Source: an uncultured Acidobacteriota bacterium
GTDB taxonomy: Bacteria > Acidobacteriota > UBA6911 > RPQK01 > JAPXNP01
Direction of reading: 5' to 3'
Assembly (NCBI GenBank): GCA_963777605.1
Contig: CAVZRV010000053.1
Location: forward strand, 1-12,573
Length of the DNA: 12,573 nt
Part shown: in pieces, positions 1,897-12,573 of the stretch
Layout of the letters: each line of letters starts with the position of its first letter
Position numbering within the stretch: the stretch's first letter is position 1
Translations under genes and position numbers: made by a program
The notes under the pieces: generated by a model
What the model was told of the DNA's origin: nothing
Databases searched by the model: none
Seen by the model: only the letters and a program-made list of their open reading frames with translations

Positions 1897-1942
1897 ACTT
1901 TTAATCAGAGGGCCGTTGGTTCGAATCCAACACGACCCACCA
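1897..1942 (+). repeat. Left att site: 3' half of tRNA-Lys(TTT)
   Basis: ACTTTTAATCAGAGGGCCGTTGGTTCGAATCCAACACGACCCACCA comprises the anticodon loop CTTTTAA, T-arm GTTGG-TTCGAAT-CCAAC and CCA end. Identical to 10769-10814. No 5' tRNA half upstream. Confidence 0.95.
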
Positions 1943-1946
1943 ATCA

Positions 1947-1959
1947 AATCAACGGTTTA
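1947..1959 (+). promoter_or_regulatory. IHF-consensus site in the att arm
   Basis: AATCAACGGTTTA matches WATCAANNNNTTR exactly and lies between the core and the arm-type sites. Confidence 0.6.
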
Positions 1960-1999
1960 CAGACGGAAATTCCGATCGTGAGATAAGAAAGACGGCCTT

Positions 2000-2019
2000 G
2001 GGGTAACGCAGGGGGTAAC
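2000..2019 (+). repeat. Integrase arm-type binding sites (left arm)
   Basis: GGGGTAAC at 2000-2007 and 2012-2019. The same octamer is paired at 10617-10635. Confidence 0.8.
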
Positions 2020-2036
2020 TAAATTGGAGATGCTGC

Positions 2037-2919
2037 GTGGGAGCGAAGGCAAAGCAACACATCATTCCGGCCTGTTATCTCAGGCCTTGGTGTGATCCTG
2101 GAACCCCTATCGGATACGAGCCCTATATTTGGCTGATATCGCGTGACGGAACGCAGAAATCCAGACGGGCGCCGTCGAACAGTTTCACGGAAAACAACTT
2201 CTACACAGTCCGGCTTCAGGACGGCGAGCGCAACTCTCTCGATCGAGGATAGTCTCGGCGCGATCGAAGATGGGTATGCTCGAGCGATTGACAGGAAAGT
2301 CGTTCTGAGGGAGCACCTCTCCGACATGGATCGTGCTTATCTATGCAGTTTCGTGGCTGCAATGTCGGCGAGAACGAAGCGTCAGGAAAACAATCTTGGC
2401 GGGTTCATTAAGCAAATCAGGAGGCTTGTTGAAAGTAACGAAAGACAATTCGGTGTTGTGTCTGCCATTGGTGAAGTACTTGAGGGGCCTTCATAGTGCT
2501 GAGCATGAATTTCTCTTGGCGACGGTTATGGAGATCCAGCCTCCCATTTTGTTTGGAATGGATTTGGCGGTTCTTGTCTGCAATGATCCGTTGGGATTCA
2601 TTACGTCAGACGAGCCTTGTGTATGGTTTAACCCCGAACTGTACAGCCTGACCCATTCTACCGGAGCCCCGGTCTTGGTCAGCGTGCCATAGAAGTCACT
2701 TTACCCGTCACTCCAACGATGATGCTTCTTTTCAACCGGAAGGGACTTCGTGGCTACAAGGTCATTCGATCTGATGTCGTGGATGAATTGAACCGGCGGA
2801 CGCGCGCTCATTGCTTGGATCGCTTTGTCAGTTGGAAGGGCGAAACGAAATCGGTCTGGTTTCAAATGGGGGTTCCTTCAGCCGACGCATGGGAAAACCG
2901 ACGCCCCGATCAGAAGTGA
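2037..2919 (+). CDS. DUF4238-domain protein, split by ~3 apparent frameshifts (near 2233, 2465, 2650)
   Basis: Joining frames gives QHIIPACYLRPW...FTENNFY...IEDSLGAIE...FITSDEPC...EVTLPVTPTMMLLF...VDELNRRT, the characteristic DUF4238 motifs. RBS GGAG precedes GTG 2037. Confidence 0.8.
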
Positions 2920-3234
2920 CGTAATTGGAGCGGATTCGGCCCGTCCAACCCATCAATGAGGAGAGAGCTGTCGACTCGGCGCGCCCAAGAACACGGAAGG
3001 TTACCTCCTTCTCGCGGCCCTCATGCGGTCCCGAGCCTGCTCTCAGGGCTCAGGTCATCGTGGCCACCTCAGCGACCCGTAGAGCCTCTAATATTCCCGC
3101 CATGAATTATGGAGTGCAAAATGGGGGGCGTAATCACATCACAGTCCAGAGGCGACTCCAGTTGGCAAGCTCGCGAGTCGCCCTTGCTCCATTAGGTTCA
3201 GCATTGCCTTTTTTTCGATACCGCCCTGATTGGC

Positions 3235-4053
3235 TTACCCAACTTTTTGAAGGGATCGAAACACTGCCAAGGGATGTTATTCCAAATTCATCCGTGCCAC
3301 GACCAAGAAATTCCTGGATTTGATCCGCCATAGTGGCGAACACCAGAGTTGGTTCATTCAGTGACGGGTAGTCGCAGTCTGGAGGGTCCAGGCACTGCAT
3401 CGATAAGTGCCAGAAGTGCGCCATACTCCCTGTAGAAAGGCTCCGTGCCCAAGCGCCAAAGCCGCTGACGGCATTGCGGATCCAATCAGGTCGGGATTGT
3501 CCCCCACAGTTGTGCATCCTCAAACCGGCAACGGATCTGAAGGCCCACAGGTATGATTTTGTAGAGCGCCTGAACAAAGCTCTTGATATTATCTGCTCGA
3601 CCTGCTTCCGACCTTGCTTCTTTTGTGTCCGAGTGTCCGTCTCGCCGACTAGCGCGTCAGTCGGGAAAGTCTCCATAAACTCGTGTAGGTTGGAAGCATC
3701 GAAAACCGAAATTGTCACAGGAAGAAGAACGGTACAGCCAACTTCTGCCGCTACCAGGTCTTTTCGCACCCATCCTTGTTGCTGGAGCATCACAATCGTG
3801 TCGATGATCCGTACATCATGGGGCTTAGCTCTTCTCCGCCCTGGATTCTCCAGACGAACTGGCTCCTTCATAATTGCCGGAAACAGATGTCAACGGAACC
3901 CTTAAGCGTTTTTGAGGTTGTCTTGTCTGACTCGAACGTATCCGATAGCCCGGTCAGGAGCGCACCAAAGAGTTGCGCTGAAAGTGACGCAATTCTTAAT
4001 TCGTCGACGTATAGGAAGTCATACAATTTCGCCGGAGGTTCGTCTTGAGCCAC
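3235..4053 (-). CDS. Hypothetical prophage/island cargo protein (DUF6414-like N-terminus), several apparent frameshifts
   Basis: LYDFLYVDELRIASLSAQL N-terminus. Frame-switching gives ...PHDVRIIDTI...LALGHGAFLQGVW...IDAVP...FLGRGTDEFGITS/LAVFRSLQKVG* (TAA 3235-3237). Merges ORF-track entries 3868..4053 and 3134..3871. Confidence 0.55.
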
Positions 4054-4234
4054 GTTTCATGCGCTCCTTCAGTTCAGACTGTTCTTTCTCAATCTCTGCG
4101 GCATGTTGATTCAAACTTTCTAGAATTGCCTGCACGGCAGCCGATAGCTCTCGACCTCCATTCCGAATTGCGTCTGATGCTTCGGACGATGTCTCGAGAA
4201 TAATCCTTGTAAACTCGTCCATACTCTGCTTCAT
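4019..4234 (-). CDS. Small helical/coiled-coil hypothetical protein overlapping the start of the downstream gene
   Basis: 71 aa, AGGA RBS-like sequence upstream, amphipathic helices, 35-nt overlap with the gene starting at 4053. Confidence 0.65.
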   Translation of the reverse strand: MKQSMDEFTRIILETSSEASDAIRNGGRELSAAVQAILESLNQHAAEIEKEQSELKERMKRGSRRTSGEIV

Positions 4235-4336
4235 CGCTTGATCATCCTAACACTTCTGAGAATCCAATCAACTCGTGTCTGATGGATCGTGATCCGTGGT
4301 GAGCCGCAGAACGGCGCCCTCCCGCCCTAGTTCCTG

Positions 4337-4522
4337 CTAGACTTCTCTATGACCCTTCTCCAAGTTTCGCGGAAGCTCGCGGTAGCTTAGCATGTACTCC
4401 TCCGCCGCCTGCTGCTGCTCGGGAGAGTCCCAAGAGTCGCCCAAATAGGTCACTCCGACAAACTTGCTGTGTAACTCGTGATCGGTCCATTGCTGCTTCT
4501 GAGTCTTCTTTCTGTCACGCAT
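4337..4522 (-). CDS. Hypothetical protein, last gene of the capsid/packaging operon
   Basis: RBS AAGGAG upstream. The start overlaps the end of the terS-like gene. Confidence 0.6.
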   Translation of the reverse strand: MRDRKKTQKQQWTDHELHSKFVGVTYLGDSWDSPEQQQAAEEYMLSYRELPRNLEKGHREV

Positions 4523-4736
4523 CGTTTTCTCCTTTCGGGAACGCCAGCTCTTTGATGAGCAGGCGAAACTCCCGCATGTTGCCGGTTTCGATCTTCGCCG
4601 CCGGGTGCGCCTTTCCGTCCAGGATTAAGCCGTCGCGCTCGATCAACTTTCGGGTCGAGAGCACCCGATCAAGCGCTCGCGCAGCCAGGTCCAGGATTTC
4701 CGCCTCGTGCTCGTCCAGATCCCAGCGTTTCAGCAT
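4515..4736 (-). CDS. terS: Terminase small subunit-like protein (P27-family-like); N-terminus probably extends upstream via a frameshift
   Basis: WDLDEHEAEILDLAARALDR...IERDGL...HPAAKIE....REFRLLIKEL matches the helical 'i..dG....HPa..iE.....f.rll.eL' pattern of small terminases of HK97-like phages. It lies downstream of the capsid gene. Confidence 0.65.
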   Translation of the reverse strand: MLKRWDLDEHEAEILDLAARALDRVLSTRKLIERDGLILDGKAHPAAKIETGNMREFRLLIKELAFPKGENDA

Positions 4737-4947
4737 CTGTGCCGCCAGGATTCGGCCTCTTCATGGATTCCGAGGTCTTTCCCCGGTTTACCGGCCGTGA
4801 TGCAGCCTTCTCCCTGGGTTTGGCCCCGTTTTTAACTCGCCGGCGCTCGTTTCTGGCCTTCCAGCCGCATTGCTGGGAGCAATACCGCCTGGGCGAGCCG
4901 TGCCGCCCTGGCTGAATTTCAATTCCGCATACCTCACAGTTCATCAC
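4669..4947 (-). CDS. Zinc-finger protein (CxxC...YCSxxC), possibly the N-terminal part of the TerS-like protein
   Basis: RBS GAGGAG 7 nt before GTG 4947. Sequence CEVCG...PRRYCSQQCGWKARNERRR. Confidence 0.6.
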   Translation of the reverse strand: MMNCEVCGIEIQPGRHGSPRRYCSQQCGWKARNERRRVKNGAKPREKAASRPVNRGKTSESMKRPNPGGTDAETLGSGRARGGNPGPGCASA

Positions 4948-5133
4948 GCCAAAACTCCTCGACACGACTATCTACAAGCATCGTTGGCCACAAAACGGTT
5001 TCGTGTTCTCACCCGGGTAAGATGAAGACCACGCCCCGGGGGTGTTCCGGGAGGGGGGCCAGCCCAGTGAGTAACCGGCCCCAACTCCCTCTTGCTCCTG
5101 CACGAGTGGAAACCAGCCTCGGCAGGCGCTGCG

Positions 5134-5172
5134 TGACCATCCCGGGGGGAAAGGCATTCCCCGGGCTGGTCA
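5134..5172 (-). terminator. GC-rich stem-loop just after the capsid stop codon (stabiliser or weak terminator; no U-tract)
   Basis: TGACCA/TGGTCA (5134-5139/5167-5172) and CCCGGGG/CCCCGGG (5141-5147/5159-5165). Confidence 0.5.
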
Positions 5173-5176
5173 AGGA

Positions 5177-6358
5177 TTAGAGCGGGCTCGCGCCGCTGAA
5201 GCTTCCCGTTACGAAGCCAGACGCACTGTAAATCGCCAACCCGACGCGACTTTCGCACAAAATGGTCGCGACGTTTTCGACGAAATTGTCACCGTGCTCG
5301 AAGGAGATCATTACGCGAGTCGGCGTCCGGTCCAGGATCTCCGCACGATCCCGGCAGCCGACCAGAAACGTTCCGGCCGTAACTCCCGTGGTTCGCACAG
5401 TTTGAAGCCAGAAGTCTCCGCCGTCCCGCGTGGAGATCGGCATAAGATAACCGCCGGCGTTGTCGGCCTGGTCTTTCAGGCCGCGAATCTGCCAGAAGTC
5501 TTGAGGATTCAGCGCGATAAACGTAGGCCGTTCGTCGATTTCCTCCAACTGTGAACAGGCGTGACGCAGATAGTCGAGGCGCGTGTCGCCAGACTGGATC
5601 CTGCCCGTGTCGAACGAAGTAGCCGCAGTCACCAGCCCTTCCAAATGAACGCCGGTCCCGCTTCCCGTCAACATTTCGGCCTGTTCCTTCGCTGCTACCG
5701 CGAGGAGGAGATCTACGTCGAGAATCCGACGGAAGTAGGGGATGTCTTCCAGAGCTTGGCGCGTCACGGAGAGATACACGGCCACCGTCGCGATCGCACT
5801 CGCCACCGCTGTCCAGGTCGAGGTTGTTTCGAATTTCCCGGATCCTTCAACCTGCGGTGAGGCGGCCGCTTTGGCGGTCTGCTTCATGAAATGGAATTGC
5901 CCTGATTCGACAGGCCGACTCGGCAGGACCAGGCGTAACACGTTCCAGGGCCACGCCATCGGTCCGAGGAAACCGCCCTGCTGTGCCGGCATGATTCCGG
6001 GTGAACCGTAGCCCAGGCCGTCGCTCGTGATCGTCGAAAGTGACGAAGACGGCCTGAAGAGCTGCCCCTGCACTTCGAAGATCGACTTGCCGTGGTTCGC
6101 GAGAAGCTCGAGTCCTTCGTAATTGCTTGTGATCTGGGCGCCGATCGTGTCCCTCGCCCCGTAGCTGTCGATCGACTCGCCCGGTTCATAGCTCTTGTTC
6201 CAAGCCTCGTTGCTCACCTTCGCGGCCGCTTCAGCGGTTGATTTTGCCTGGGCCGCTTCCTCTTTTACGACGGCCAGCTCGCTTTTCATTCGCCCAAGTT
6301 CCGGTCGCGGATCATAAAAAGATTGTGTACTCATTTTTAACTCATTCTTTCCCGCCAC
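5177..6358 (-). CDS. HK97-family major capsid protein with N-terminal coiled-coil (delta-domain-like); start may be ATG 6334
   Basis: Motifs VEGSGKFE, IATVAVYLSVTRQALEDIP, MLTGSGTGVHLEGL, LNPQDFWQIRGLKD..GGYL, AGTFLVG, DNFVENVATILCESRVGLAIY..GFVTG. Confidence 0.93.
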   Translation of the reverse strand: MAGKNELKMSTQSFYDPRPELGRMKSELAVVKEEAAQAKSTAEAAAKVSNEAWNKSYEPGESIDSYGARDTIGAQITSNYEGLELLANHGKSIFEVQGQLFRPSSSLSTITSDGLGYGSPGIMPAQQGGFLGPMAWPWNVLRLVLPSRPVESGQFHFMKQTAKAAASPQVEGSGKFETTSTWTAVASAIATVAVYLSVTRQALEDIPYFRRILDVDLLLAVAAKEQAEMLTGSGTGVHLEGLVTAATSFDTGRIQSGDTRLDYLRHACSQLEEIDERPTFIALNPQDFWQIRGLKDQADNAGGYLMPISTRDGGDFWLQTVRTTGVTAGTFLVGCRDRAEILDRTPTRVMISFEHGDNFVENVATILCESRVGLAIYSASGFVTGSFSGASPL

Positions 6359-6576
6359 TTTTTGGCGAAATCGTAGCCGTTTGCTTTCGGCTTTTCAGTT
6401 TCGTTTTCTCTTTGCGGGGGTCGCTGCACGGTGCTGATAGCCTCGCTGATTTCTTCCTGGCTGAACCCTCGATCGACGAGGAAAAGTGCTTGCAGCTTTG
6501 GATTCAGTCCCGCGTATCGGCCTGCACAAAGCTCCTTGCAACTCTGCACGTTAAATGCGCTTTCGCTGGTTCTCAT
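6337..6576 (-). CDS. Hypothetical protein immediately upstream of the capsid gene
   Basis: RBS GAGGAGG before MRTSESAF (ATG ~6576). It abuts or overlaps the capsid start. Confidence 0.55.
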   Translation of the reverse strand: MRTSESAFNVQSCKELCAGRYAGLNPKLQALFLVDRGFSQEEISEAISTVQRPPQRENETEKPKANGYDFAKKWRERMS

Positions 6577-6686
6577 TCGAACCTCCTCTAGACATAGTTC
6601 TGTTACTTGGGAATTGAAGGCCGGAGGGGAGGCAAGGCCAAGAGCCAAAGCTGTCGGCGATTGCGTCTTTAATGGCGTTCCATACT

Positions 6687-6719
6687 ATTATACGAAATTT
6701 GAGTGACATCTGTTTCACT
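6687..6719 (-). promoter_or_regulatory. Candidate capsid-operon promoter with a palindromic operator or activator site
   Basis: Perfect -10 TATAAT on the minus strand (6687-6692), no consensus -35. AGTGA-N8-TCACT at 6702-6719 in an AT-rich intergenic region. Confidence 0.5.
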
Positions 6720-6740
6720 ATTTCTAATTGAGCCCTTGCA

Positions 6741-6983
6741 TCATGTCTTTGCCCCGGAAGGAGGATTCAGACCGAGTGTTTTCGCGATGAGGTGGAGAAT
6801 TTCGTCCTGATTGTTCTCCCGATTAACCTGGACGTCCGCCCGACGTTCCAGCACCGCGATCCGGCTTTCGAGTGCCATCATGGTCGCTCCGCAGGCCCGG
6901 AGGACATCGTTTTGTTTCTTGAGTGTTTCTGACATTTCGTTCATGAGTTCAATGCTTGTTTTCGATTCGTTCTTCTCGCTCAT
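6741..6983 (-). CDS. Small coiled-coil hypothetical protein
   Basis: ATGA overlap with the upstream gene, RBS GGAGG, heptad-like MMALESRIAVLERR. Confidence 0.7.
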   Translation of the reverse strand: MSEKNESKTSIELMNEMSETLKKQNDVLRACGATMMALESRIAVLERRADVQVNRENNQDEILHLIAKTLGLNPPSGAKT

Positions 6984-7426
6984 CTGTCGCTCCTCCAGTT
7001 CGTCCTCGTTGATTCTCTTCGATGCGTTGCTCGTTCGTGTCTTCTTTGCACTCTTCGTGTGATTTCTTCATCTAGCCATTCAAGTAGACTTGCCGGGTTG
7101 ATACCTTCTTCAACCGCTCGCCCGGTGATCTCCTCCAGTCGCCTTTTGAACAGCGTTCGTTGATACTGTTCCAAGTTCATCACCCATCGTCGCAGAATCC
7201 CGAGGATGGCCCCTCCGGATTCCGGGCCGAATGTTAGTATTCCGTCATCAAGTACAAGTCGATGTACTTGGCCGAATTCGAGAATGATCTCTCGTTCGAA
7301 CACAGCCAATACAGACGGGCAACCCGTCACCGACAATTCAACTTGGAGGTGGTCGGAATCGGCAAGTACTGCCTCGAGGCCGAGTCGTTCCAGGGCGTGG
7401 ATGATGTTATCCATTAATTGCTTCAT
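6980..7426 (-). CDS. Hypothetical protein
   Basis: ATGA-coupled to the PC4 gene upstream and to 6741..6983 downstream. Confidence 0.65.
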   Translation of the reverse strand: MKQLMDNIIHALERLGLEAVLADSDHLQVELSVTGCPSVLAVFEREIILEFGQVHRLVLDDGILTFGPESGGAILGILRRWVMNLEQYQRTLFKRRLEEITGRAVEEGINPASLLEWLDEEITRRVQRRHERATHRRESTRTNWRSDR

Positions 7427-7644
7427 GACTTGCCCACCTCGGTCAGCATCGCCTCCGCAACCTGTTGAGCCAGGTCAGGACTGAGGCACAAGCCCTTTTT
7501 GGTCGGCTTCCATTGGCCCTCGTCGGTTTCAAAATAGACGCGGGCATCCAGGTACTTCCGGCCCCGGTACTCGGTCAGCCCGATGCGGATCACTTCGCCG
7601 GCACCTTTTTCCAGTTCGATGCAGGTGTTTCTGTCGGCGCTCAT
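7423..7644 (-). CDS. PC4/p15 (YdbC-like) ssDNA-binding protein
   Basis: IRIGLTEYRGRKYLDARVYFETDEGQWKPTKKGLCL is the PC4 signature (e+rG..y.D.R.y.....G.w.PTkKG+.l). Confidence 0.92.
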   Translation of the reverse strand: MSADRNTCIELEKGAGEVIRIGLTEYRGRKYLDARVYFETDEGQWKPTKKGLCLSPDLAQQVAEAMLTEVGKS

Positions 7645-7706
7645 TTCAGCATCGATGGATTCTTTGAGATTGCAGTTTGCGTTTGTTCATCGCGGTTCGC
7701 CTTCAT
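7641..7706 (-). CDS. 21-aa leader ORF translationally coupled to the PC4 gene (or its frameshifted N-terminus)
   Basis: GGAGGTAGG RBS, then MKANRDEQTQTAISKNPSMLK*, whose TGA overlaps the PC4 ATG (ATGA). Confidence 0.4.
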   Translation of the reverse strand: MKANRDEQTQTAISKNPSMLK

Positions 7707-7916
7707 CTAGTCCTACCTCCGTGATAGAATTCCTATCGGTGTAGTAGGAAAAACCTTTTTGCAGTAGAGCGGGCCGGGACCGTTCATCCTGGCGCGCCGT
7801 CGTCCTGCTTCCTCCCAGTGGGGGTCATCCCGGGAGAAACTCTGAATCCAAAGATCGCTTTTGCGGTTTCAAGTCGTTCGCGTAAGTCCGTACCAGCGCA
7901 AGCTTTTTCATAGCAG

Positions 7917-7972
7917 ATGTTGGTTAGTTGGTTTCTTGGTTGCCTGGTAACCTGGTTTGTCGGTGAATTGGT
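7917..7972. repeat. Seven tandem degenerate 8-bp units (nnnYYGGT), candidate origin iterons
   Basis: atgttggt tagttggt ttcttggt tgcctggt aacctggt ttgtcggt gaattggt, with exact 8-bp period. Confidence 0.75.
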
Positions 7973-8393
7973 CATCCCGCCAACCTCTTCAAGACTGTCT
8001 CCACCAGGGAATAGGCGGGCTCGGTCTTCGACGTGACTACCTTGCAGCGGTACATCTTCCCGGTGAACATCGACGGTCGGATCATGTGGACCGGGATTCT
8101 GTGGTTTGCAACTGCGGCCATCTTTGCCAACTTTGACCGCAATGGGGCTTTCTTCCATCCGTACCGGACAAAGCAGGGAAGCACGATGCCTTCGAGGTTC
8201 CCAGGATCGTATATTCGGAACTTCAGGACCAGGCGTTGGGCCTTCTTCTCCCCAAACTGCGGGCAATGGATCTTCGTCACCGAGATGCACATCGCATCGA
8301 CCATTTTCACGTCGAGCCGGGAGGAACATCCTCGGACACGCAAAGGACTTCCTCGGGGCCCTCCTGGAGCTTTCGATCCGGGTCTGCGCTCAC
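7972..8393 (-). CDS. Hypothetical protein, possibly OB-fold/DUF669-like replication accessory; one apparent frameshift near 8325
   Basis: GTG 8393 directly follows the alpA stop. VSADPDRKLQEGPEEVLCVSEDVP joins RLDVKMVDAMC...LVLKFRIYD...SKLAK...FTGKMYRCKVVT...YSLVETVLKRLAG. Beta-rich pattern; the fold call is tentative. Confidence 0.55.
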
Positions 8394-8607
8394 CTACTGC
8401 CCCGCCTCAACCGTCGGCCGAGCTTCGAGCCACCGCTCCACTTCGTTGGAAAGCCACCCGACCAGGCCGGGGGCGATCTGCCGGCGAGCGGGTATGATTC
8501 CTTCCTTTTCGTAGCGGTAAAGCGAGGTTCGCGAACGGACGCCGACTGATCCTGCACATCTCGTTCGGGCGGATTACATGGGGTGTTTTCGGTTCAGCGT
8601 TTTCCAT
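8394..8607 (-). CDS. alpA: AlpA-family regulator/excisionase (one apparent frameshift near 8547)
   Basis: MENAEPKTPHVIRPNEMCRI plus the +1 frame VGVRSRTSLYRYEKEGIIPARRQIAPGLVGWLSNEVERWLEARPTVEAGQ* gives the classic AlpA pattern (SR..LYR..K.G..P...I....VGWL..EV..WL). Confidence 0.88.
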
Positions 8608-8613
8608 TTGCGC

Positions 8614-8632
8614 AGCATAGCACCATATGGTG
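8614..8632 (-). promoter_or_regulatory. Extended -10 promoter for a probably leaderless alpA mRNA, overlapped by a perfect 12-bp palindrome
   Basis: TG-C-TATGCT lies 6 nt before the ATG with no SD. CACCATATGGTG at 8621-8632. Confidence 0.55.
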
Positions 8633-8675
8633 AAAACGCTTTATTTGCAGATGTTTACAGACTTTTATGAGGCTT

Positions 8676-9351
8676 TTATACTGCGGTAGAATGCGGGTTT
8701 TCGGCGATTTTCGGGACCGGTCGAGAGGGCTTATATACCTTGTTGAGCATCACGCGCCAGTTTCTCATGGCGTTCCGGATGATCTTCTCCACCTCCGGGG
8801 CGATCCGTTCCGGGTCGTTGGGATCCGCTGGCAGATAGCGTTTTAGTTCTCGAATCAGTCTCCCGCGGGTGTCGGCGCCCCAGCCTGAGAGCTTGAGCCG
8901 GCCATGCATCGGCAATTAGAACGTCCACCAGGTATCGCCTGTACTTTCCGGCGGTTTTCGCCTCGATGAACCCGGTCGCCTCGTTGAACCGGAGGCCCTG
9001 CTCTTGGAGGCGGTCCAGGATCGCTTGGCCGAGTTGGTAAATTTCGATGAGCCGCTGGTATGTCCGCTGCATCCGAAATTCCAGATCCCCGTGGCCCATG
9101 GTGTCGTCGAAGTCGTAACGGTGGAGGATCCCACTCACCGTTCCCAATGACTCCCTCAGCCGCTCAATGTCGGCGCCCAGGCGATGCGGTGGGAACTGGC
9201 GGAGGAACACTTGCGGGTACAGCGGGTGGTCCTCCCGGAACTGAAACACCAGCCCGTGAGGGCTCTCGGGGAACAGGTCGCGGAGCGCAGCGCCAGGGGC
9301 GTCCATGTCCGCCTTCATTCGCTCCAATATTTCGCGGTCTTCATCGCTCAT
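8676..9351 (-). CDS. Hypothetical protein coupled to the integrase (ATGA overlap); probable frameshift near 8910
   Basis: MSDEDREILER... starts in the int stop codon after a GGAAAGGTGG RBS-like sequence. The C-terminus reads more protein-like in the 8676..8915 frame than in the frame ending at 8731. Confidence 0.6.
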
Positions 9352-10582
9352 CCGAACGCCACCACCTTTCCGCCTTCGCCCGTCAGGATCTGATTCAGTT
9401 TTGCAGACCATCGCTCAGCCGCTCGGCGTTTCTCGGAAAGCCGCTCCGACCTGTCATAAATTGCCGTTACACTCGCGTCCTGGCTCTTGTGATTCAGTAG
9501 CGCCCCGATGATGTAGCGCGAGACTCCGAGGTCGCCCATATGGGTTGCACAGGTACGTCTGAGCATATGCGGACCGAAACGGAACAGCGGTTCCGTTTTC
9601 GCCTTCTTTGCCCGTTCACGTTCCGTTGCGTTGATGCGTTTTGTCATGCTCTGTAGATACTTAACGTGCTTTCCTTCATCCAGCGCAAAAACCCACTCAT
9701 GCGCCCCGGTAATCCGTTCGAGATTGTCCAGGATGTCGATCGCGATGGGTGAGAGCGGGCAAGCATGCTCCCGTCCGTTTTTCGTGATCCACTCGGGCAG
9801 TTTCCATACTCGCTCTTTGCGGTCGATGTCCTGCCATCGCATCTTGCAGACTTCTCCTGGCCTCTGGCCGGTCACCAGGATCATTTTGAAAACCGATGCG
9901 GTCGGCTGCTCCCGGTTGTCGAGTTCGGCCCACAGCGCCTTAATCTGCTCGGCGTTGAGGTAATCTTTCTTTGGCTGTTCCTTGATGACTCGCTTCGTCC
10001 CTGCGACCGGGTTGTTCTCGACAATCTCGGCCTCGAATCCGATGTTGAACATCTTGGAGAGTAGACTCCTCACCCGGTTCGACTGGATCGGCCCGTTCTT
10101 GTCCGCGATGGTGTCGAGCAGGTCCACGACATCGCGCCTACGGATGTTCCTGGCTTTGATGTTCTGCCACGGCGGATAGACATATTTGTCGAGGATCCTC
10201 TGATCCTCCGCGATGCTGGCCGGCTTCTTATGTCTCTTGGCGTGTCGCCTCATGTAGTACTCGCCCAACTCCTTGACCGTCTTTGCCCGCCGGTGCTCCG
10301 TCTTCTGCTTCTGCGGGTCTTTCCCTTCAGCGGCCTTCTGGACGGCATCTCGGGCCGCGGTCGCGCCTTCTTGAGCTTCATAGCGGGATAGGTGCCGAGG
10401 GTCATTCTCCGGAGTCGATGTCGCCGGCCACCCGGTAGACACCACGAATGACTTGTGACCGGATCGAGTCACGCGGAGGCCAAATGAGCGACCCTGGAAT
10501 GATTCCTCCACACTTCCAGGCGGTCGCCTTCGGCCCTCTGATTTTTGATCAGAACGTCGGTCAACAGGGTAACTTTTGCCAT
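9348..10582 (-). CDS. int: P4-type tyrosine integrase with N-terminal arm-binding (Arm-DNA-bind_3/DUF4102-like) domain; ~4 apparent frameshifts in the first ~220 nt
   Basis: RBS GAGGAGG and ATG 10582. Reconstructed MAKVTLLTDVLIKNQRAEGDRLEVW/EESFQGRSFGLRVTRSGHKSFVV/YRVAG/RLRRMTLGTYPAMKLKKAR. Catalytic motifs TGQRPGE (R), TKNG (K), HMLRRT (HxxR), LNH (H) and AIYDR (Y) are intact. Confidence 0.95.
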
Positions 10583-10616
10583 CTCAAACCTCCTCACTCG
10601 GCCCTCTGACTTTTTC

Positions 10617-10635
10617 GGGGTAACATCGGGGTAAC
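10617..10635 (+). repeat. Integrase arm-type binding sites (right arm)
   Basis: GGGGTAAC at 10617-10624 and 10628-10635. Variants AGGGTAAC at 10566-10573 and GGGGTAAG at 10702-10709. Confidence 0.8.
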
Positions 10636-10768
10636 AAAATCCTCGATGTTAGAATTAGAACACGATGGTACGACAAGGCACAATGCAATGTTGAAAACAC
10701 AGGGGTAAGCGTCCATATTCAGCGGGTGCAGTGAACAGGCTGGAACAGCATGAAACGGGGTTTTGGAG

Positions 10769-10814
10769 ACTTTTAATCAGAGGGCCGTTGGTTCGAATCC
10801 AACACGACCCACCA
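10769..10814 (+). repeat. Right att site: 3' half of tRNA-Lys(TTT)
   Basis: Exact 46-bp copy of 1897-1942. No 5' tRNA half upstream. Confidence 0.95.
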
Positions 10815-12219: not shown

Positions 12220-12401
12220 CGGTCTGCCGCCTGACACAGAGGCGGGGGTAAGGAACGCGCCCCCGCGTTCCCGGACCGGCAACCAGCATCGAGACCGGTA
12301 CCGAACCACGCACGCAGGCCCGGTGAGGGCCTGCCTCTGTGTGCTCGACAGCCGCCCGGTCTGGCACCCAAACACAGAGCCGGGGGCAAGGAACGCGCCC
12401 C
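12220..12401. repeat. Imperfect ~45-bp direct repeat with palindromic parts (REP/MITE-like)
   Basis: CGGTCTG...ACACAGAG.CGGGGG(T/C)AAGGAACGCGCCCC at 12220-12264 and 12357-12401. Hairpin GGAACGCG-CCCC-CGCGTTCC at 12252-12271. Inverted CCTCTGTGT lies between the copies. Confidence 0.6.
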
Positions 12402-12573
12402 GGGGTTGGATCTTGGCACGTGTTCATGTCCTCGGTATCCAGGTTGTTTTTCGCATGTCGGCGCTGACAGAATTCGTTCGGGTGAGTGAGTGTCCTGTTT
12501 CATCTTCTGCAATGCCACTGCGAAGCGAAAGATCCTGCACGATGTGAATGAGATCGGTCAGCCCGAGTCGGAG

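Follow-up and report, generated by a model that had tools for sequence, protein, structure and literature searches.

A probable PICI-type phage satellite with a capsid gene of its own, one of two siblings in a genome of probable Acidobacteriota affiliation

The locus described here raises the question of what kind of mobile element carries an intact gene for a phage major capsid protein (MCP) with no portal, large terminase (TerL), prohead protease or tail gene beside it. It lies on contig C53 of a metagenome-assembled genome (MAG) of 6.73 Mb in 53 contigs (96.7% complete, 5.7% contaminated), and this contig in its entirety, 12,573 bp in length, is the window analyzed. A first, sequence-only reading of the window suggested that the element may be an undescribed type of satellite. 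The results presented below indicate instead that the 8.87-kb segment is probably a helper-dependent satellite of the phage-inducible chromosomal island (PICI) type, of the kind that carries a capsid gene together with a small terminase (TerS) gene, and that it is one of two siblings in this genome.

An att-bounded segment, its sibling and its capsid gene

The element is delimited by an exact 46-nt direct repeat with a start-to-start spacing of 8872 nt, which bears out the att-bounded element of about 8.9 kb first proposed. The repeat corresponds to the 3′ portion of tRNA-Lys(TTT), spanning the anticodon loop through CCA, and the same 46-mer is present in four copies genome-wide, one within an intact tRNA-Lys(TTT) gene on contig C6, one on contig C10 and two in the window. 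No tRNA gene was detected in the window by ARAGORN or Rfam, the 5′ half of the tRNA being absent before both repeat copies, and Rfam returned no match at its gathering threshold for the window and none at E ≤ 0.1 for positions 1-2000.

A tblastn search of the genome with the element's proteins uncovered a sibling satellite elsewhere in it, on contig C13 (214 kb), with one copy of its own repeat inside an intact tRNA-Val(TAC) gene (191202-191278) and the other at 199810-199854. Its genes are arranged in the order integrase, orphan, HTH_17 regulator, a primase-helicase of 591 aa, small open reading frames (ORFs), a homologue of the 148-aa ORF of the window element (o148), MCP and TerS. The primase-helicase contains a CHC2 zinc finger and matches AAA_25 (E 1.9e-25), phrog_6088 (E 1.9e-31) and phrog_239 (E 8.5e-26), the TerS is credible (phrog_1496, E 4.1e-9), and the capsid protein is 42-43% identical to that of the window. 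Two sets of three short direct repeats, iteron-like in appearance, surround the 3′ end of the primase gene (L001 15488-15769), and PICI origins are likewise described as adjoining the primase gene in passages of Fillol-Salom et al. (2018; PMC6092414). The two elements share one gene order and a near-equal size (8.58 and 8.87 kb) at different tRNA genes, which argues that the compact layout is a design and not the product of two independent deletions.

The genes that are missing characterize the element as much as those that are present. Among the 28 ORFs scanned against Pfam, PHROGs and NCBIfam, no family match was obtained for a portal, TerL, S78 protease, connector, tail, holin or primase/helicase, none of the hypothetical ORFs resembling portal or primase/replication families, and six-frame searches for portal, TerL and S78 returned none of the virion or lysis gene fragments expected of a defective prophage. 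The lack of portal, TerL, protease, tail and primase genes asserted in the sequence-only reading is thereby upheld. Neither the portal profile PF04860 nor the S78 profile PF04586 matches anywhere in the genome in six frames, the window included, and the TerL profile PF20441 matches on contig C30 only. The element shows no similarity to the sibling's primase, no PHROG or Pfam match at E ≤ 0.1 to the P4-like set (Psu, Delta, Sid, epsilon and the alpha primase) and none of the portal, protease, head-tail adaptor, connector, TerL and HNH genes that typify capsid-forming PICIs (cf-PICIs).

The capsid gene is the best preserved and best supported gene of the element. Its product matches PF05065 (E 7.6e-24; 85 bits against a cut-off of 24.2) and TIGR01554 (E 4e-15), both above their cut-offs, and residues 122-390 align to gp5 of phage HK97 (phmmer, E 1e-36) with 31-34% identity over approximately 250 columns. 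The AlphaFold model is well predicted in its core (residues ~131-385), the first ~130 residues having predicted local distance difference test (pLDDT) values below 50, and the best Foldseek matches of this model are gp5 structures (2ft1_G; E 1.8e-24, 33% identity, template-modelling score of 0.79 on the target). A long helix at residues 10-48, within the low-confidence part of the model, appears delta-like, as would be expected of a delta/scaffolding domain. In HK97-like phages, the delta domain is cleaved by the S78 protease, and gp5 residues K169 and N356 form the chainmail cross-link pair, with E363 as the catalytic residue. The residues opposite these three in the printed alignment are K, N and E, given the gp5 numbering and a chain-to-protein offset of 103 that we take to be correct. 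Retention of the cross-link residues suggests that the protein is a real shell protein and not only a poison of assembly.

This last point bears on a different explanation, in which the segment is an integrative island whose capsid-like gene serves a role other than transfer, either as an anti-phage decoy that poisons assembly or as an encapsulin-like shell. The preservation of the capsid ORF would accord with such a role, as would the failure to find a helper and a weak NCBIfam match of the capsid protein to a family 3 encapsulin (25 bits). That match is far under its cut-off of 180 bits and the HK97 MCP model passes its own, and the encapsulin assignment was rejected; moreover, the delta-like domain and the TerS-like neighbour both point to virion assembly, and PADLOC gave no cargo or defence family, with no match for any of 18 ORFs, the DUF4238 and DUF6414 regions included. 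An island of this kind is considered quite improbable.

The relatives of the capsid gene provide a further means of judging the origin of the element. A database search returned 19 proteins at E ≤ 0.001, and no relative outside this genome exceeds 42% identity. Scans of the genome, metagenome and viral contigs gave at least 80 loci each, and the 20 closest were annotated. Of these 20, 12 show the (TerS-)TerL-portal-S78-MCP order that is canonical in HK97-like phages, and the remaining eight either are too short or lack these genes beside the capsid gene. Outside this genome, the nearest relative (L085, 41% identity) has an S78 gene upstream, as revealed by tblastn. Eight further loci without portal and TerL matches were then scanned, of which five have satellite-like layouts (L127, L137, L120, L158 and L141; Table 1) and capsid proteins of 31-35% identity; two (L133 and L211) are phage-like with a tape-measure gene, and L126 has a capsid match only. 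Elements of the same synteny, which the sequence-only reading had proposed to seek, thus exist in the form of the C13 sibling, with a similar layout in these five metagenome loci.

Several of the loci deserve mention in their own right. In L127 and L137, which also carry int, an AlpA-like HTH gene and a replication gene, an S78 gene follows the capsid gene without portal or TerL, a recurrent satellite layout of capsid plus protease. Locus L005 of a Bryobacterales MAG (9782-12892) and L095 of a metagenome contig (539-4500) present a capsid gene adjoining a cold-shock-domain gene and an integrase, again without portal or protease, and represent a lone-capsid island type in which the small nucleic-acid-binding protein recalls the PC4-like protein of the window element. 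Two tandem capsid genes follow the portal and protease in L101 (4096-6374), and L087 (4160-6889) encodes a TerL of 909 aa whose LAGLIDADG insert is probably an intein or a homing endonuclease.

A quick maximum-likelihood tree was calculated from 75 non-redundant capsid proteins (bit score ≥ 118, length ≥ 250 aa, near-copies of ≥ 90% identity dropped). The window and sibling capsids pair in this tree with a value of 89 in the Shimodaira-Hasegawa-like approximate likelihood-ratio test, and their terminal branches measure 1.77 and 1.05, where the median is 0.33, and are the second-longest and another of the longest; because these branches are very long, the deeper placement of the pair is unsure.

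These relatives invite the view that the element is what losses of portal, protease, TerL and tail genes have left of a complete HK97-like prophage, the capsid gene being a leftover without a satellite life style. The prevalence of canonical phage modules among the closest loci, the S78 gene upstream of the capsid gene in L085, the many frameshifts of the element and a broken HNH-TerS-TerL module on contig C30, which demonstrates that such phages do decay in this genome, would each be in keeping with a remnant. Against this stand the two siblings, near-equal in size and of the same compact order at different tRNA genes with perfect att repeats, neither of which yields a fragment of portal, TerL or protease in six-frame searches. 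Furthermore, the TerS or TerS-like gene follows the capsid gene here as opposed to preceding TerL in the phage relatives, and the sibling capsids form a pair of their own in the tree. The possibility that close relatives would prove to be full prophages is realized only in part, namely among the more distant capsid loci; the sole close relative is itself a compact 8.6-kb satellite, which weighs against decay of a prophage by deletion. A prophage remnant is held to be improbable, and the PICI-type satellite remains the preferred reading.

Place among known satellites

The PICI model of SatelliteFinder, as presented by de Sousa et al. (2023; PMC10085698), has a core composed of an integrase, an AlpA/MerR/Stl regulator, a primase-replicase, a capsid morphogenesis gene and a small terminase, with portal, head-tail connector or attachment, tail and holin genes as forbidden components. 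Type A elements possess all five core components and Type B four, a common Type B variant being that without the primase-replicase, and the median size of PICIs is given as 9.5 kb. The window element has the integrase, the AlpA regulator and the capsid gene, none of the forbidden components and no primase-replicase. As judged from their genes, the sibling matches Type A and the window element would match Type B without primase-replicase, its TerS component being marginal.

Lone capsid homologues are also on record. In Fillol-Salom et al. (2018; PMC6092414), EcCICFT073 is listed with a decoration protein and a putative capsid protein (c1499), PmCI172, an island that makes small capsids, with an MCP homologue, and SaPIbov5 with the capsid homologue Ccm; PICI-like tycheposons have either terS or MCP (Hackl et al., 10.1101/2020.12.28.424599). 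Two other kinds of element differ in this regard: the marine virion-encapsidated integrative mobile elements (VEIMEs) encode no major capsid gene (PMC9618062), and cf-PICIs are defined by 11 core components, including portal, protease, head-tail adaptor, connector, TerL and HNH, of which at least nine are required (PMC10085698). Since the PICI model already covers the gene set and lone capsid homologues have been published, the claim of an undescribed satellite type is unsupported; on its gene set, the element fits a PICI-type satellite of known kind and should not be counted as a new class.

A comparison with individual systems places the element more closely. It resembles the Gram-negative PICIs EcCICFT073 and PmCI172 in its size of about 9 kb, terminal integrase, AlpA, capsid homologue and TerS-like gene, and in the absence of portal, connector, tail and lysis genes, the sibling adding a primase-replicase with adjacent iterons. 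It differs from them in a probable host of Acidobacteriota or a neighbouring phylum rather than Proteobacteria or Firmicutes, in its orphan accessory ORFs, in the position of the TerS-like gene after the capsid gene, in its PC4-like protein and in a full HK97-type MCP with cross-link residues. With SaPIbov5, whose Ccm is a lone HK97-fold homologue that makes small capsids, it shares a single capsid homologue, the absence of portal and TerL and a likely dependence on an HK97-like cos or pac helper, the likeness to Ccm being one of description; SaPIbov5 carries the cos site of its helper rather than a TerS. The cf-PICIs (Alqurainy et al., 10.1101/2022.09.08.507074) likewise have an HK97-type capsid protein of their own, and a TerS to which the TerS-like piece would correspond, but their portal, protease, adaptor, connector, TerL and HNH genes are all absent here. 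The tycheposons of Prochlorococcus are similarly small and integrated at tRNA genes, and combine a tyrosine recombinase and replication genes with one phage packaging gene; in them this gene is MCP or terS, whereas the window element apparently has both, and they differ also in host and in an unrelated set of hallmark genes. Finally, the five metagenome islands present the same capsid subfamily adjoining an integrase, an HTH_17/AlpA-like regulator or a primase, and they too are without portal and TerL; unlike the window element, several have S78 after the capsid gene, and none has o148.

The orphan genes might alternatively denote a satellite family distinct from PICIs with a new mode of action, for example satellite-only capsids with o148 as the size determinant. 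Consistent with such a family, o148 is limited to the two siblings among 1.84 billion representatives and most other ORFs are orphans, the capsid branches are very long, the cross-link residues and delta-like domain have been kept, and the host is probably outside the phyla with catalogued PICIs. However, every recognizable component and their order fit the PICI model, lone capsid homologues are familiar in PICIs, and nothing at this locus demonstrates a new mechanism; a distinct family is thus deemed improbable.

Remaining genes, frameshifts and genomic setting

Read from the right end along the minus strand, the genes of the window element (Table 1) follow in the order int, an orphan of ~226 aa, alpA, the 123-aa orphan, PC4-like, o148, two small ORFs, the 393-aa capsid protein, the Zn-ribbon ORF, the TerS-like piece, two small ORFs and the DUF6414 fragment, with the DUF4238 gene alone on the plus strand at the far left end.

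Table 1. Coordinates of features in the window element, of the sibling satellite and of satellite-like capsid loci
Feature	Position	Strand	Evidence or remark
Left att copy, 46-nt 3′ part of tRNA-Lys(TTT)	1897..1942	+	Exact repeat; same 46-mer in intact C6 tRNA-Lys
DUF4238 gene, probable cargo, at least 3 frames	2037..2919	+	PF14022
DUF6414 N-terminal fragment (3868-4053), then 245-aa ORF	3134..4053	-	PF19952
Two small ORFs, 71 aa (coiled-coil-like) and 61 aa	4019..4522	-	Sub-threshold matches only
Zn-ribbon ORF (4669-4965) and TerS-like C-terminal piece (4518-4760)	4515..4965	-	Marginal profiles and position
HK97-type major capsid protein, N-terminal delta-like domain, uninterrupted ORF, 393 aa	5177..6358	-	PF05065
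Two small ORFs, 103 aa and 80 aa (coiled-coil-like), between o148 and capsid gene	6337..6983	-	
o148, 148 aa	6980..7426	-	Shared only with sibling (tblastn, alignment)
PC4-like single-stranded-DNA-binding protein	7423..7644	-	PF02229 E 1.2e-13, phrog_4053 E 1.3e-8
123-aa ORF	7972..8343	-	Where sibling has its primase-helicase
alpA (excisionase/regulator), one frameshift	8397..8607	-	PF05930, phrog_2790
226-aa ORF and 79-aa ORF in another frame	8676..9411	-	No family match
Tyrosine integrase, P4-like	9348..10582	-	PF00589, PF22022, PF13356
Two inverted extra copies of att-core 12-mer flanking int start	10531-10542, 10599-10610	-	Sequence match
Right att copy	10769..10814	+	Identical 46-mer
Sibling satellite, 8.58 kb	C13 191234-199854 (L001 11234-19854)		Exact 45-nt repeat, spacing 8576
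L127	1702-9392		int ... TerS-MCP-S78
L137	3565-16553		int-HTH_17-DUF3631 ... MCP-S78, then methylase and ResIII cargo; adjoins purN
L120			PriCT and VapE primase ... MCP
L158			int ... DUF3854/AAA_25 ... MCP
L141			D5_N primase ... MCP

The integrase is strongly supported (PF00589, E 2.9e-25; phrog_1, E 1.6e-58) and begins with an ATG at 10582 behind a GGAGG ribosome-binding site, the upstream frame fitting the N-termini of other integrases; a frameshift near 10505 leaves the first ~25 codons, which encode the N-terminal arm domain, outside the frame of the main ORF. The alpA assignment is sound (PF05930, E 7.5e-7 and 29.4 bits, above the cut-off of 21; phrog_2790, E 2.4e-7), the matches being confined to the frame piece 8397-8573, with the ATG and first residues in a separate frame (8410-8640). 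The gene set of the sequence-only reading accordingly holds in that int, alpA, PC4 and an intact HK97-fold capsid gene are all co-oriented on the minus strand, with alpA in two frames, and fails to hold firmly for the TerS-like gene, whose matches are marginal (E 0.05-0.1). The att-core 12-mer has four matches in the window against 0.07 expected, a count attained in none of 200 shuffles, and its two inverted copies at the start of int are possible binding sites for the integrase or for AlpA or another regulator, or possibly an autoregulatory operator.

Most of the accessory ORFs are orphans. The 226-aa and 79-aa ORFs probably form one gene between int and alpA (o226), without homologues in 5.8 billion clusters, and the 123-aa ORF has no match in Pfam, PHROGs, NCBIfam or PADLOC. 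The o148 protein is 51-57% identical to its sibling homologue, and a profile search of 1.84 billion representatives found two members, both in this genome; the ESM Atlas gave no usable match, and Foldseek searches of the PDB and BFVD found none at E ≤ 0.001 (AlphaFold2 model, pLDDT 68.7). The neighbouring 103-aa and 80-aa ORFs have no family match at E ≤ 0.01. PF19952 (E 1.2e-4) covers a 61-aa piece only of the DUF6414 region, and its 245-aa ORF is, with the 226-aa ORF, the largest without assignment. In the DUF4238 gene, PF14022 is matched by three successive frame pieces at model positions 1-58, 58-111 and 179-211.

A number of observations weigh against a functional PICI-type satellite and temper the confidence placed in it. 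The fit to the model was judged with Pfam, PHROG and NCBIfam stand-ins for the SatelliteFinder profiles. The TerS-like piece matches Terminase_4 at E 0.052 and 14.4 bits (cut-off 24.7; model positions 8-81 of 98) and the small-terminase family phrog_83 at E 0.098, in the same family and register, and it has no homologue in 5.8 billion clusters; a comparison with six phage P27 TerS sequences by hhalign was negative (probability 0.2%), as was BLASTP against the TerS proteins of the sibling and of contig C30. Like the TerS of the sibling, it comes after the capsid gene. The region is spread over three frames: the Zn-ribbon ORF and the C-terminal piece can be read as one gene only through two shifts, the middle piece lacks a start codon, and the two ORFs probably represent a single gene broken by these two frameshifts. 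In addition, neither a primase-replicase gene nor an iteron array or origin was found in the window element, and among 75 other genomes of the same order only two have a capsid match (E ≤ 1e-10), both distant. No candidate helper prophage was detected in this 96.7%-complete MAG, Terminase_6N being absent genome-wide along with PF04860 and PF04586, and the sole TerL belongs to an isolated, frameshifted HNH-TerS(P27)-TerL remnant between chromosomal genes on contig C30. Lastly, at least five frameshifts fall within 8.8 kb of the element (one in int, one in alpA, two in the DUF4238 gene, one or two in the TerS-like gene and probably o226), and the sibling's integrase is likewise spread over three frames.

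Whether these frameshifts reflect decay depends upon the quality of the assembly. In a comparison sample of eight long core-gene frames picked ad hoc (rpoB, rpoC, two of the dnaE family and four class-I tRNA synthetases), about two shifts occur in ~24.5 kb, both in leuS, giving the element roughly ten times the shift density of the core genes; at the core rate, the Poisson chance of at least five shifts in 8.8 kb is ~0.001, a figure that derives from a small and unsystematic sample. The leuS gene on contig C29 (243803-246948) is the only one of the genome and is split over three frames. As leuS is essential, the assembly must hold indel errors, and the frameshifts alone are therefore not readable as pseudogenes. 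The window copy may be a decaying rather than an active satellite, unless the shifts are assembly errors. Elsewhere in the genome, two more genes are split, one phosphotriesterase-like (C13 188181-189151) and one encoding PARG (C10 8449-9289), and the assembly includes homopolymer runs of 161, 389, 503 and 837 nt that are probably artefacts.

Assembly or binning error could also be invoked for the locus as a whole, as a small repeat-bounded contig that is chimeric or foreign. The contig is only 12.6 kb long and the MAG is rated at 5.68% contamination; nucleotides 1-961 of the contig duplicate the end of contig C12 (1-962) at 99.3% identity, and indel errors do exist. These features are countered by dispersed repeats of the right flank that recur on many contigs, by an 84%-identical paralogue of the left flank (958-1896) directly left of the C10 att copy, by the location of the sibling inside a 214-kb contig and by a G+C content of 56% against 58-60% for the genome. 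An artefact is considered very improbable.

The repeat copies and the flank duplications on contigs C10 and C12 indicate that islands at tRNA-Lys form an array or mosaic, left in pieces by the assembler, within which the element lies; its own boundaries are clean. The 21 nt that lie 3′ of the right att copy recur 3′ of the C10 copy. Several different islands occupy the tRNA-Lys locus (C6, C10, C12 and the window). On C6 (56023-57210), a second integrase gene, whose product is 27% identical, and a Replic_Relax gene come after the intact tRNA-Lys gene. On C10 (4985-5921), the att copy is preceded by an 84% paralogue of the 241-aa HTH/membrane ORF of the window and by split SbcC/SbcD-like genes. 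Within the window, positions 12234-12407 comprise two copies of a 36-nt GC-rich, hairpin-like repeat reminiscent of repetitive extragenic palindromes, which has dozens of dispersed or tandem copies on C28, C27, C35, C7 and other contigs; being common to so many contigs, the repeat ties the window contig to the rest of the genome.

Host, helper and a possible life cycle

The RpoC of this genome is 71-72% identical to those of three Bryobacterales genomes (Acidobacteriota), 60% to that of a Dokdonella genome and 57% to that of a Verrucomicrobiota genome, suggesting that the host is probably a member of Acidobacteriota or of a neighbouring phylum. No work joining Acidobacteriota with phage satellites or PICIs appears among the literature matches listed, a weak sign that such satellites are undescribed in that phylum.

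The only PF05065 proteins of the genome are the two satellite capsids. A single sheath match is located on contig C31. The remnant on contig C30 (~161370-163830; L249 16372-18825) consists of an HNH gene, a ParB-like fragment, a P27-type TerS and the frameshifted TerL, with a tRNA-Glu gene 3 kb away, and looks like the packaging module of an HK97-like cos phage. The helper of the satellite may be virulent, or may be a temperate phage that the MAG does not contain; a best guess would be an HK97-like siphovirus with a PF04860 portal, S78 protease, Terminase_1-type TerL and P27-type TerS.

The gene content is suggestive of a plausible life cycle. With its P4-like tyrosine integrase, the element would insert at the 3′ end of tRNA-Lys(TTT) and reside there until a helper phage infects or is induced, whereupon Int and AlpA might excise an 8872-bp circle through the 46-bp core. 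Because the element has no primase-helicase of its own, the circle would presumably be copied by helper or host functions, perhaps with the aid of the PC4-like single-stranded-DNA-binding protein. The satellite capsid protein could then assemble on the helper portal and be matured by the helper protease into capsids sized for ~9 kb, and the TerS-like protein would steer the helper TerL to satellite DNA. The functional proposal of the sequence-only reading is a reasonable idea in light of the genes present: a satellite with its own capsid protein and packaging-specificity factor would depend on its helper for portal and TerL, and likewise for protease and tail.

A bolder interpretation, possible but doubtful, is that the siblings represent a satellite lineage in a soil phylum without characterized ones, which builds its own cross-linked HK97-type shell upon a stolen portal and protease; o148 and the adjoining coiled-coil ORFs would set the small capsid size, and the copy that lacks a primase would rely entirely on helper or host enzymes for its replication, contributing only the PC4-like binder. 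If this were true, the lineage would stand between the classical and the capsid-forming PICIs.

The layout of capsid gene plus TerS and nothing else lies already within the published definition of PICIs and recurs in soil metagenomes. The interest that remains resides in the likely host phylum, in the cross-link residues of a very divergent satellite capsid, in the lineage-specific o148 and in the pair of elements with and without a primase. If the element is active, the range of PICI-type satellites that have a capsid gene of their own would widen to include a probable Acidobacteriota host, and the two siblings, one with and one without a primase, would form a natural pair for asking what a satellite minimally needs.

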